Shown piece by piece: positions 11,116 through 16,900 of a stretch of DNA of 64,000 bases (the first letter of the stretch is position 1; each line of letters starts with the position of its first letter). Both the position numbers and the translations under genes were made by a program. Source of the DNA: an uncultured delta proteobacterium (GTDB taxonomy: Bacteria > Myxococcota_A > Polyangia > Polyangiales > Polyangiaceae). The DNA is taken from positions 4,288,001 through 4,352,000 of the forward strand of contig CAWAIF010000003.1 in the NCBI GenBank assembly GCA_963782055.1, read 5' to 3'. Under the pieces are notes generated by a model, which saw only the letters and a program-made list of their open reading frames with translations, was not told the origin of the DNA and made no database searches.

Positions 11116-11901
11116 CTACCCCCGACCCGCAGCAATGCCCTTGAAGACTCTTTCGCGATGCCACGGCAGGTATGCGCGGTGACTATCGTTGAGTCCGTGG
11201 ACCCTCAGCGAGGCGTCGAGACCGAGGAGCTGCCGGTCGTGGCTCTCGAGCGCGGACGACACGACCACCGCGCCGTCGTCCGCTAGGGAGATGAATCCGC
11301 GGTCAAAGGCTGCGTCGAGATGCGGAGCGAGCAGCACGCCGTTGAACACGTCGAGCCTCTCGGCGTCGCTCGCGCAGTCGGCCCACGGCTTGATGTGGCT
11401 CGCGCGGAGGAGTTCGGGAACGGCGAGGCCGGTGATCGCGCAGCGACCCTCCCAGTATTCGAGGAGCCCCTGTCGGAAGACGCCCTGCCCGACGCGCTGG
11501 ACGACCAGCCGTTCCGCCTCGGTGTTCCGTGGCAGCGAGACGGTCTGCTTCTCGAACGTGTGGAGCAGCTCGTCGGGAAGCGTCTTACTGAGCTGGTACG
11601 CGCGCCGGAGCAGACGGTGGAGCTCCGGAATGCTGGTAACGGTTCGACCCCCGAAAGCGCCCTTGGGGAGGGGGGCCGCCATCGGTGTGCCGTACTGCCC
11701 GAGGGCGCGCGTGACGTTTTGCTGCGAGAAGGTCGCGAGGAATACCGCATCGCCGAATGTGCCGAGCCAGATGCGGAGCGGGCACTGCGTGCTCGCGAAA
11801 GCGAGCCAGTCGCCCTCACGTGGGAGTTCCTGGTCGAAGCCGTTGTCCGTCGCCGCCTTCTCGAGGCGCGAGAGGATCATAGGCGAGAGCGCGGTGGTCA
11901 C
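11116..11901 (-). CDS. HNH endonuclease (HNH_2 type)
   Basis: RVGQGVFR...CAITG...LRASHIKPW...NGVLLAPHLDAAFDRGFI. Confidence 0.9.
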   Translation of the reverse strand: MTTALSPMILSRLEKAATDNGFDQELPREGDWLAFASTQCPLRIWLGTFGDAVFLATFSQQNVTRALGQYGTPMAAPLPKGAFGGRTVTSIPELHRLLRRAYQLSKTLPDELLHTFEKQTVSLPRNTEAERLVVQRVGQGVFRQGLLEYWEGRCAITGLAVPELLRASHIKPWADCASDAERLDVFNGVLLAPHLDAAFDRGFISLADDGAVVVSSALESHDRQLLGLDASLRVHGLNDSHRAYLPWHRERVFKGIAAGRG

Positions 11902-13910: not shown

Positions 13911-16900
13911 GGAGCACTCCAAGCTGCGTGACCAGGTCGACGTCCTCGACACCGGCGCCGCTCACGCTCTCGAGCCACGAGAGCGCCACCAACGCGCGAG
14001 CGTCGAGCACGTCCGAGGGGGCGTCGTCGATGTCCGCTCCGGCGCGCCAACGGCCGTCCGCGTCCATCACGAGCACGTGCTCGACGGCTGCTCGGCGAAG
14101 CACTTCGGCCCAGGGGATCGAGAGCGCCGCGATCGACGTCAAGTTCATGTTGGCGGGCCCGATCGCGCGACGCCACTTTGGGGCGATCTGTGCGTCGAAC
14201 TTCGACTGCAGCATGCCCGGGAGGGCGGCGAGCACCACGGCACGCTCGACCTCGTCGCGCGACGCGGGCCCACTCATGTTGCGCAGGACGGCAGCCAGCG
14301 CCGCGATGCCGAGGTCGACGCCTGTCAGCGTCGTGCCCCATCGACCGACCGAAGCGGCGAGCCCGGTCTTCGTCGCCACCGCCCGAAGGAGGTCAGGCGA
14401 CCATGCGGGGATGTCGCGACGCGGGACGGCCGGAGCGACGGCCGGTTGCGGACGCACCGTAGGCCTGACCGGCAGCGGGACGACATTCCCACCGCGACCA
14501 GGATGCGCAACACGCGGGTCGGCGGGCGGCGGGTCGAGGCGCGTCTGGTACGGTTTGCCAGTGCGTGTGCCTTCGGTCATCGCGTCGTAGATCTCGAGGA
14601 TGACGCGCTTGGTGCGGTACTCGCCGCATAGTTTTTCGTCGTCCTTCTGAACAATCGGGAAGGTACCGAGGATGTGCGCCAGCTCTTCGCGATCGAGGCC
14701 GTAGAGCAATGCGAGTCGTGCTTCGATCTCTGCTCGCAACTGGAGCCGCTCAGTCGTCTCGACTGCGCCCGGGATCTCCGTCGCCTTCCGTGCGGGCACG
14801 ACCCTGGACTGCACCATCTCGTCCCACAGCTCGTTCATCTCCGGGCCCGTACATGTGAGCCGCAAGGCCCGCTGAACGATGTCCTGCGCGGCGGCGTCTC
14901 CGGCTGACAGGCGCGGGAAAGGCAGGCTGTCGAGGATGGTGAGCGCCATCTTCAGGCTCACCTTCATTCGTACGAGGAAGTCCATCGTGAAGGAGTTCGC
15001 CGCCGCAAGCCAGAGCAGTAGGTCGAAACGCGGAGCGACAGACTTCATCAAGACGGTAGGGACCTTGTCACCGGCGATGCAGTCACGCGGCAGCATCGCC
15101 GCCACCAGGCTTCTCTCGTTCGTTGGGCTCGCTACGTCGCAGAAGCCCACGCGGTACTCGCCGATCCGCAGCTTCGCCTGATCTGGCACGCCGTCGGCGT
15201 GTACGTACCACTGCGGCTGAATCGACTTCTGTGGCGAGCCGAACGGTAGGTCCTCCCAAACTGCTGCCCGTGCGCGGCCCGAGCGGTAGCCCTTCGCGCG
15301 GTGATCGTACTGGGCCACCATTCGCCCTTCGTAGTGAGGCAGGGCAGAACGGTCCTCGGTGAGCAGCCCCTGGACGTGCCCGCTCTCGAGCTCTCGCAGG
15401 TAGGACCGGTGAGCCGTGCCAGTGACGACCTGTCCGAGTGGAGGGAACTGCCCGTACATCTTCCGGGCGATGTTGATGTCCTGCTGACCGCGGAACTCCA
15501 TCACCGCGAGCGCATCTGGAGAGAACTCGCGGACCATCGTCACAGGCAACTGCAGGCAGTTGCCTGCACGTGCAGCAGCGAGATCGAGCAGCGAGCGGAT
15601 CCAGAACGCTGCAGGGAACACCGTGGTCGTACCGCCCTTGTGCGCAGCGTAGAGGGCGAACTTTGCGCGGGAATCAACGCCCGGAAACCACACCTCTTTC
15701 GTGTTCTCGAACCCAAGAAGGACATCGAGGCGGAAGCGTTCAAAGAGGTCCTGGCGGATCGCCATACTATTTGCGCCCGAATAGAGGCCATCGGGCACAA
15801 TCTGAGCCGCAAAGCCGCCCTCACGAACGAGCCGAAGGGCGAGTTCGACAAAGAGCCGATACAGGTTGAAGTCACCCTTACCGAGGTTACCCGGGGCGAA
15901 GAGCGTGAAACGCCCCGACTCCTTCATGAAGAAGGCCGAAGCGAAGATTCCGCGCCGGTTACGCTCCCACGCATGCGCGACGCTCGGGTCGAGGAGCAGC
16001 TGAGCGATCGTCGCCTCTTGCTCCCCCTTGGACTGGAATCGAATCGCTCCCTCGTAGACCGAGAAGAACTCCTTTGCATCCGGGCTCAGTGTGTCCCACG
16101 GCGGGTTCCCCAGCACGATATCGAACCCGCCCTTTGCGAACACCTGTGGGAACTGGAGGTTCCAATGGAAGAACCCATATTGCTCCGCCAGCTCGCGCAC
16201 AGTCTTCGCCGTCAGCTCGGGTGGCTGCCCTTGCGCATCACGAAGCTGCCGCCATAGCTCGTTCGTCGGCGCGACCTCGGCGAGGTCGCCCGGGAGCTTC
16301 GGCCACACGAAGGCCGCACACCACGCGTCGGCGACGAGCTTCTGGTGGCGGTACTCGGCCGAGCCGAGGATCCCGTCCCACTGTGACTCCTTCTTGGCGA
16401 GCGCCTCGGGGTTCGCGTCGCTCGCGGCCTCAAGCTCGGCGACTGCACGCGCGACCGCTTGCGCCTCGCCATCACTCGGCTTCGACCAGAGCGTGTCCAG
16501 CAATCGCTGCCCCTTAGCAGCCTCCTTGTTGCGTTTCTTGAGCGCGCTCGCGGTCTTCTTGTCGTCGCCCTCAATGGGCTCCCACGCGGTGTCCGGAATG
16601 CCCTTCGCCATCAGCTCGGGCGTCGTGCCGAGAAGCGCATTGCCATGCTGGATGTGCGAGTTGAGGAACGTGAGCGGTAGGCCCGGTTCCACCGCCTCCA
16701 TCCACAGGCTCACCTTGCACAGCTCGACGGCCATCGGGTTGAGGTCGACACCGTAGATGCAGTGACCGACGACCTGTCGGAGCGCGTGCCGGTACTCGGC
16801 CGCCGAGGGCGTACCGTTCGCCGAGAGGCGCGCGACGTGCGACGCGAGCCGACGGGCGGCCGCGAGCAGGAAGTGCCCCGAGCCGCAGGCCGGGTCGACG

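Follow-up and report, generated by a model that had tools for sequence, protein, structure and literature searches.

The window analysed here, a stretch of 64,000 nucleotides from an uncultured delta proteobacterium of the family Polyangiaceae (assembly GCA_963782055.1, contig CAWAIF010000003.1, positions 4,288,001 to 4,352,000), contains a restriction-modification (RM) operon whose N6-adenine methyltransferase (MTase) ends in an additional winged-helix domain, referred to below as the tail, which is encoded directly before a coiled-coil ATPase of the ATP-binding cassette (ABC) type. The tail and the ATPase form a module that is real, conserved and rare, and that joins two known kinds of system. 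Lamassu systems consist of a sensor (LmuB), an adapter (LmuC) and a toxic effector that is released (LmuA), and RM systems are readers of methylation; in the present case LmuA is missing, and the apparent Lamassu sensor and adapter are hard-wired to more than one type of RM subunit. Taking the analyses together, we put at slightly better than even the proposal that this LmuC-LmuB-like module would tether an ATPase dimer that senses DNA ends or DNA structure to the RM complex, and would direct or license the RM nuclease. The parts on which the argument turns are the following.

13900..18414, minus strand: PglX/DrmMI/Eco57I-like N6-adenine MTase of 1504 amino acids, carrier of the tail (Pfam Eco57I, E-value 3.8e-21; PADLOC REase_MTase_IIG, 1e-74, and DrmMI, 1.7e-62)
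14416..14499, minus strand: Pro-rich linker of 28 amino acids, beyond the usual MTase end (tail-less relatives stop near the preceding motif)
13903..14415, minus strand: winged-helix tail of 171 amino acids, which has a helical extension at its C-terminus, is LmuC- or middle-component-like and is portable among RM subunits (AlphaFold2 model, fold searches, ratio of nonsynonymous to synonymous substitution rates (dN/dS), co-occurrence)
11898..13910, minus strand: short-LmuB/DUF2326-like coiled-coil ABC ATPase of 670 amino acids (PADLOC LmuB, E-value 1.8e-12; weak DUF2326 match; structural matches; motifs)

The MTase is ordered as the segment PYQTRLDPPPADPRVAHP (about 14553-14500), the 28-residue linker, and the 171-residue domain (14415-13903). 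A preliminary description of this DNA had noted the linker and the added domain, which is somewhat longer than the ~150 amino acids given there, and had proposed that such MTases normally end at PYQTRLDPPPADPRVAHP. This is borne out by 17 complete relatives without the tail, 14 of which stop at the corresponding segment, PY/AY...L(D/G/S/A)PP, or no more than about 26 residues away from it, with one stopping just before it and two having a different C-terminal half. The ATPase most likely starts at the GTG at 13910, which has a GGAG 6 nucleotides before it and corresponds to the position at which homologs start, the longest open reading frame (ORF) beginning at 13952; its gene therefore overlaps the MTase gene by 11 nucleotides, in agreement with the overlap of tail stop and ATPase start described earlier. 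There is no separate gene in the interval between MTase and ATPase, and no match to a LmuA, LmuC, C-terminal domain (CTD) or middle-component model was obtained among the 9-10 window proteins scanned with Pfam and PADLOC, so that the ATPase does lack the usual Lamassu or ABC-3C partner genes, as had been noted.

The association between tail and ATPase was surveyed at 160 ATPase loci: the window locus, the 80 top matches out of 240 in genomes, and 79 loci drawn from the 80 top matches out of 390 in metagenomes. The set is redundant (147 of 159 loci are distinct), and it extends to 25-30% ATPase identity in Pseudomonadota, Acidobacteriota and other groups. A tail profile, started from a single-sequence seed search and then built iteratively from these same ATPase loci, matches the C-terminus of the gene directly upstream of the ATPase in 149 of the 160; nine of the 11 loci that lack a match start at a contig edge, and the other two (L044 and L049) have a helicase fragment before the ATPase. 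The in-frame fusion is kept down to 25-30% ATPase identity, in several phyla and on unrelated carriers, and the stop-start overlaps of tail gene and ATPase are of similar size throughout. No full-length free tail gene was seen at these loci, the few short tail ORFs being contig edges or apparently split MTases. Pairwise identities across 76 loci correlate strongly between tail and ATPase (rho 0.91, part of which may be accounted for by the adjacency of the two) and weakly between tail and its own MTase core (rho 0.35). On these sequence comparisons, the tail is best regarded as belonging with the ATPase and not with the MTase.

The converse analysis used MTases and genomes that had not been picked by the ATPase. 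A relative of the MTase is present in 28 of 401 genomes of the window's phylum, and stretches were examined in sets of 20 and 8, a sample which omits six places near contig ends and in which L196, L198 and L203 are uninformative. The preliminary description had asked whether the tail is equally frequent on MTases that have no such ATPase as neighbour; it occurs on none of the 17 complete MTases (16 loci) that lack the ATPase next to them. The MTases directly before the ATPase all carry an extension of 150-190 amino acids, three of which are too diverged for the profile: when aligned to it with hhalign, two give weak matches (L177, E-value 0.003, best of 10 shuffles 0.0099; L178, E-value 0.0014, best of 10 shuffles 0.051) and the third, L184, gives no match (E-value 0.5). 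Other profile matches of these three are circular, because the sequences were in alignment A4. A genome search with the tail gave five strong matches in the 401 phylum genomes and two further independent ones in 351 class genomes, and all seven distinct strong matches (own genome included) are directly followed by the ATPase. A weak, partial match in genome G034 (E-value 2e-5), in an unrelated protein without the ATPase, was judged to be due to chance. The search of 400 genomes of the phylum of genome G678 gave no further tail match, and the module is therefore rare in that phylum.

The history of the MTases points the same way. On a tree of MTase cores with 51 rows, a subsample of 121, the presence of the tail changes eight times, and at least four of these changes are forced by starred branches. 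A different run yielded a contig in which the MTase end is preserved, as is the HNH gene that in the window follows the ATPase, and 3,538 other letters replace positions 11889-14474, which hold the tail and the ATPase. Tail and ATPase co-occur and diverge in parallel, and the MTase C-terminus gains or loses them as a pair. Near-identical operons occur with and without the module, whose contribution is therefore directly measurable. At three loci (L185, L194 and L199), a different ABC-type ATPase of ~415 amino acids and a small partner lie between a tail-less MTase and the HNH gene, and the MTase-HNH site therefore takes alternative cassettes.

The carrier of the tail varies. Wherever there is room for it, a full-length MTase carrier has an SNF2 gene upstream (90 of 90), and in 14 of 159 loci it is the Type I subunit HsdS that ends in the tail, with HsdM and HsdR upstream in nine of the 14, four being cut and one lying in a BREX-like locus; these HsdS-tail loci form one clade nested among the MTase carriers. 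In a single case, L213 (an IMG/VR contig), the carrier is a Type III Res subunit, in which the tail comes last, behind the endonuclease domain; Mod is encoded upstream and an overlapping ATPase downstream, and this tail and this ATPase point to the same relatives. Type ISP-like MTase-specificity proteins also end in the tail, as seen in five PF18135 rows among the matches listed (the best 120 of 312). Directly before the ATPase, the tail is found on no fewer than three RM subunits that are unrelated to one another, so the carrier is not one particular domain; in the loci seen, it is whichever RM gene comes last ahead of the ATPase. The coupling to the ATPase which the preliminary description saw in the tail thus holds, and its restriction to MTases does not. 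This distribution suggests that a small winged-helix domain and an ATPase form a portable sensor module that is plugged into restriction systems. Two plasmid matches labelled MmeI or DNA methyltransferase turned out to be ordinary MTase-type carriers.

Two loci show further arrangements. The BREX-like one (L034, 1614-12911) has PglZ and BrxL and contains an HsdS-tail gene, ATPase and HNH without an adjoining HsdM or HsdR. At L182 (genome G254, 6001-11971), a canonical short Lamassu, made up of a CTD10 protein and a DUF2326 ATPase, directly follows Type I HsdM and HsdS, an arrangement that is a plausible precursor of the fusions between tail and RM subunits.

The predicted folds of both parts resemble those of Lamassu components, strongly in the case of the ATPase and weakly in the case of the tail. 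In structural comparisons the ATPase model matches YydB and LmuB chains at E-values of 1e-13 to 5e-11, with LmuB taking five of the top six Foldseek rows; the ATPase profile gave no match below an E-value of 0.04 against PDB sequences. The coiled coil is broken at 282-301 and 324-330 and has its hook at 387-413, and the nearness of these points to the LmuB folding points described in 10.1101/2025.03.14.643221 was counted in favour of the LmuB-like reading. The motifs GHAAGKT and HDSPRE reported in the preliminary description were both found, the Walker A motif GHAAGKT at about 13688-13668 and the Walker B motif FLLHDS at about 12119-12102. The family has the Walker A pattern xGHxxGK[T/S], in which GK is invariant and the first Gly of the prototypical Gx4GK[S/T] of short Lamassu is absent, and conserves FLLHDS, which fits hhhhD[Q/S/T/E]. 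The hook-like pair that had been reported as CPY...CPM is present (CPYD...CPM, with CPYD...C at about 12743-12693) as a degenerate and not a typical hook: one CxxC is found in the hook region of 87 of 104 homologs and none in that form in 17, including the window, whose clade has CPYD.

The AlphaFold2 model of the tail is a winged helix with a predicted local distance difference test score of 96. In fold searches with this model the small Lamassu chains show a weak resemblance, and MukE is at rank 2 in Foldseek. Comparison of 110 tail members with Pfam and PADLOC gave scattered matches only, all with E-values above 0.02, comparison with PDB sequences gave none below 0.2, and the best score against the ESM Atlas, 0.79, is a lead at most. 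Three basic positions (R45, R83 and R140 in window numbering) are K or R in 88-99% of the tails. The tail is under purifying selection, with dN/dS of 0.15-0.25 in eight pairs in which the ATPase has 0.11-0.16, and of 0.15-0.33 for tails borne by HsdS. Of the two identities suggested earlier for this domain, the likeness to a middle component finds support in the coupling to the ATPase and in the weak resemblance to small Lamassu chains; nothing points to a CTD-type module.

The comparison with known systems requires the remaining genes of the operon and its surroundings, which are as follows.

21186..26723, minus strand: YprA/DruE-like DEAH helicase with a fused MZB (DUF1998) domain, the first gene of the operon (Pfam and PADLOC scans)
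18417..21237, minus strand: BrxHII/DrmD-like SNF2 helicase, with a reading frame that is broken in the assembly (Pfam and PADLOC)
11116..11901, minus strand: HNH endonuclease, the usual companion of the helicase-SNF2-MTase operon whether or not the module is present (Pfam HNH_2, E-value 2.3e-12)
7032..11135, minus strand: McrB-like AAA protein together with a McrC-like DUF2357/PDDEXK nuclease, both downstream and given as context (Pfam and PADLOC)

The closest relative is short (type II) Lamassu, also known as ABC-3C or DdmABC, with the gene order LmuA-LmuC-LmuB. Short Lamassu is defined by a LmuB-like ABC ATPase of ~600 amino acids with the Walker B motif hhhhD[Q/S/T/E] (PMC12663957), and the size and Walker B motif of the ATPase described here agree with this, as does the number of CxxC copies, which lies between zero and two. 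The likeness extends to an ABC ATPase of ~650 amino acids with a broken coiled coil, an hhhhDS Walker B motif and zero or one CxxC hook, and to a winged-helix-like domain of ~170 amino acids encoded directly before it, Lamassu chains being the best structural matches, strong for the ATPase and weak for the winged-helix domain. Here, however, no LmuA or CTD is found upstream (the Pfam detection of CTD10 worked in L182), the LmuC-like part has no gene of its own and, in every complete carrier, forms the C-terminal end of an RM subunit, and the ATPase forms a distinct clade with weak LmuB and DUF2326 profile matches and a variant Walker A motif. The module would thus work like a Lamassu core, yet it falls outside Lamassu because it has no LmuA or CTD and no separate LmuC.

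The host operon has the three genes of ARMADA Type I in the published order of YprA helicase with DUF1998, BrxHII-like helicase and, last, PglX-like MTase (PMC12458937), an assignment made here by gene order; the helicase of ARMADA I is described in the same paper as ending in an active Vsr-type nuclease. The operon differs in the added tail and ATPase, and the module is seen on RM systems of Types I and III as well; the terms ABC, SMC and Lamassu have zero occurrences in the main text of that paper. It differs from DISARM class I in that the helicase and the MZB/DUF1998 domain form one ORF of 1845 amino acids instead of separate DrmA and DrmB, and a PLD nuclease gene such as DrmC was not found among the operon proteins scanned. 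PrrC, RloC and PARIS are ABC ATPases linked to the status of RM systems. They resemble the present case in that an ABC ATPase is encoded within or beside an RM operon, but they have a dedicated toxic nuclease, either as part of themselves or as a partner, whereas here there is no conserved effector and a covalently fused adapter provides the link. The MukE and kite subunits of MukBEF and Wadjet are likewise winged-helix partners of SMC-like ATPases, but no kleisin or kite gene was found between MTase and ATPase or among the scanned proteins, and the ATPase has 670 amino acids and a hook-type apex, unlike the long SMC with a hinge of those systems.

In the Lamassu structures that have been solved, LmuC is central: it touches the two LmuB copies at their kinked coiled coils, it binds DNA, and the CTD of LmuA is held by it (PMC12663957; 10.1101/2025.03.14.643221; 10.1101/2025.06.23.660979). 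By analogy, the tail may be a LmuC-like adapter and the next gene product a short-LmuB-like ABC ATPase, which together would make up a two-part module in which the effector LmuA is missing. With the adapter fused to the final subunit of the RM operon, the link to LmuA would be replaced by a peptide bond to the RM subunit, the ATPase dimer would be tethered to the RM complex, and the RM machine would stand in the effector position. The tail would bind the kinked, hook-proximal coiled coils of the ATPase dimer and help it to grip DNA, the ATPase would sense the ends of invading DNA or its replication intermediates, and sensing would recruit or license the RM nuclease or translocase at that site, with targeted restriction rather than LmuA-type cell death as the outcome. 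The broader idea that RM systems (ARMADA, Type I, Type III and Type ISP-like) have taken up the LmuC-LmuB core as a general plug-in, adding an input from DNA structure, for instance ends or replication intermediates, to the reading of methylation, is more tentative, and we hold it at about one chance in three. If it is true, two logics of self and non-self recognition are joined in one complex, and an abortive sensor becomes a targeting device. If the binding is real, the module shows what LmuBC does without an effector to release, and defines an unannotated domain family together with a LmuB clade that Pfam and PADLOC scarcely detect. No description of a LmuC-like domain fused to RM subunits was found in the literature, where Krishnan et al. 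2020, the source for ABC-3C, or supplements may already list the architecture.

Several observations weigh against the tethering proposal. The score of the tail fold is weak, and LmuC folds score no better than other winged helices; alternative cassettes occupy the same MTase-HNH site; short tail-like proteins exist apart from the loci seen; and no tail was found in two genomes, G225 and G375, that contain full-length ATPases of this family alone among unrelated genes (L179, 5177-7051, and L180, 7258-9162, respectively). The short tail homologs (P0128, P0132, P0140, P0142, P0143, P0148, P0149 and P0150) have 153-172 amino acids and begin where the domain begins, and in most of them the final helix is missing. 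Similar scores for transcription-factor winged helices and LmuC, together with the conserved basic positions of a winged-helix fold and stop-start overlaps of similar size throughout, are also what would be expected if the tail mainly supplied the RM enzyme with an extra DNA-binding winged helix, the ATPase acting on the same DNA without contact and the linkage resulting from co-transfer and translational coupling. A free-standing aid to DNA binding would be expected on MTases without the ATPase too, where it is found in 0 of 17, and LmuC binds both DNA and LmuB (PMC12663957), hence DNA binding is compatible with docking; we regard this explanation as decidedly unlikely. Less probable still is a remnant, an embedded Lamassu without LmuA whose lmuC became fused by chance to the gene upstream, and which is carried along in defence islands with no action of its own on the RM system. 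Genes are frequently embedded in RM, BREX and DISARM operons, L182 has its canonical Lamassu right after a Type I RM system, and a LmuA clade that lacks the effector domain has been described (PMC12663957), but the dN/dS values of tail, ATPase and HsdS-borne tails, the retention of the in-frame fusion at low identity across phyla and carriers, and the lack of a full-length free tail gene at the ATPase loci seen all speak against it.

A further alternative is a guard, in which the ATPase docked on the tail would monitor the RM enzyme, and a phage inhibitor or DNA ends that disturb the complex would set off a separate downstream toxin, here the HNH protein, and cell death. ABC ATPases that respond to RM inhibitors are known, for example PrrC and PARIS (10.1101/2024.01.29.577857). 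The HNH gene does follow the ATPase, as the preliminary description stated, and overlaps its stop by 4 nucleotides; across 98 informative MTase-type loci it is the next gene after the ATPase in 70, and a range of 4.5 kb takes in the HNH gene in 82 and leaves 16 without it. Several HsdS loci have a NucS-like/DUF5655 gene in this place. The HNH family also follows MTases without tail or ATPase at 7 of 16 loci, however, and is next to the ATPase at one of nine informative HsdS loci and absent at the other eight; the HNH protein has no CTD match in Pfam or PADLOC, and no downstream gene common to all carrier types was found in the surveyed loci. Because it follows tail-less MTases and is rare at HsdS loci, the HNH gene looks like a companion of the helicase-SNF2-MTase operon, the tail-ATPase module having apparently been inserted ahead of the HNH gene, and HNH is probably not the effector of the module, although the two may cooperate in MTase-type loci. 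The effector role assigned to it earlier thus draws on its adjacency at MTase-type loci and is opposed by the counts at tail-less and HsdS loci and by the 16 absences, and the guard is unlikely. The NucS-like/DUF5655 genes encode ~320 amino acids and follow the ATPase at L029 (as part of a longer ORF), L041, L047, L113-L116, L133 and L136, and thus in most HsdS-type loci.

In the N-terminal part of the MTase (window 17600-18414), no E-x-K motif is conserved among the positions that are more than 80% conserved in 60 carriers, and this part may be an inactive nuclease-like domain. The SNF2 gene is split by a one-base insertion near 19881; homologs are intact, and because contigs of two other runs lack the extra base, the insertion either arose as an error of assembly or is a recent change. 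The operon and the McrB- and McrC-like genes lie on the minus strand between a serine recombinase and a tRNA-Asn, and within the window the tRNA-Asn 3' end was not found repeated as an attachment site. They are part of an island (6261-46400) that adjoins the tRNA-Asn and has a slightly lower GC content. The island also holds a serine recombinase gene at 27410-28942, a recombinase fragment near 40078-41139, and DUF1016-like and Fic-like ORFs, the first recombinase being labelled by scan and the others by inspection of the sequence.
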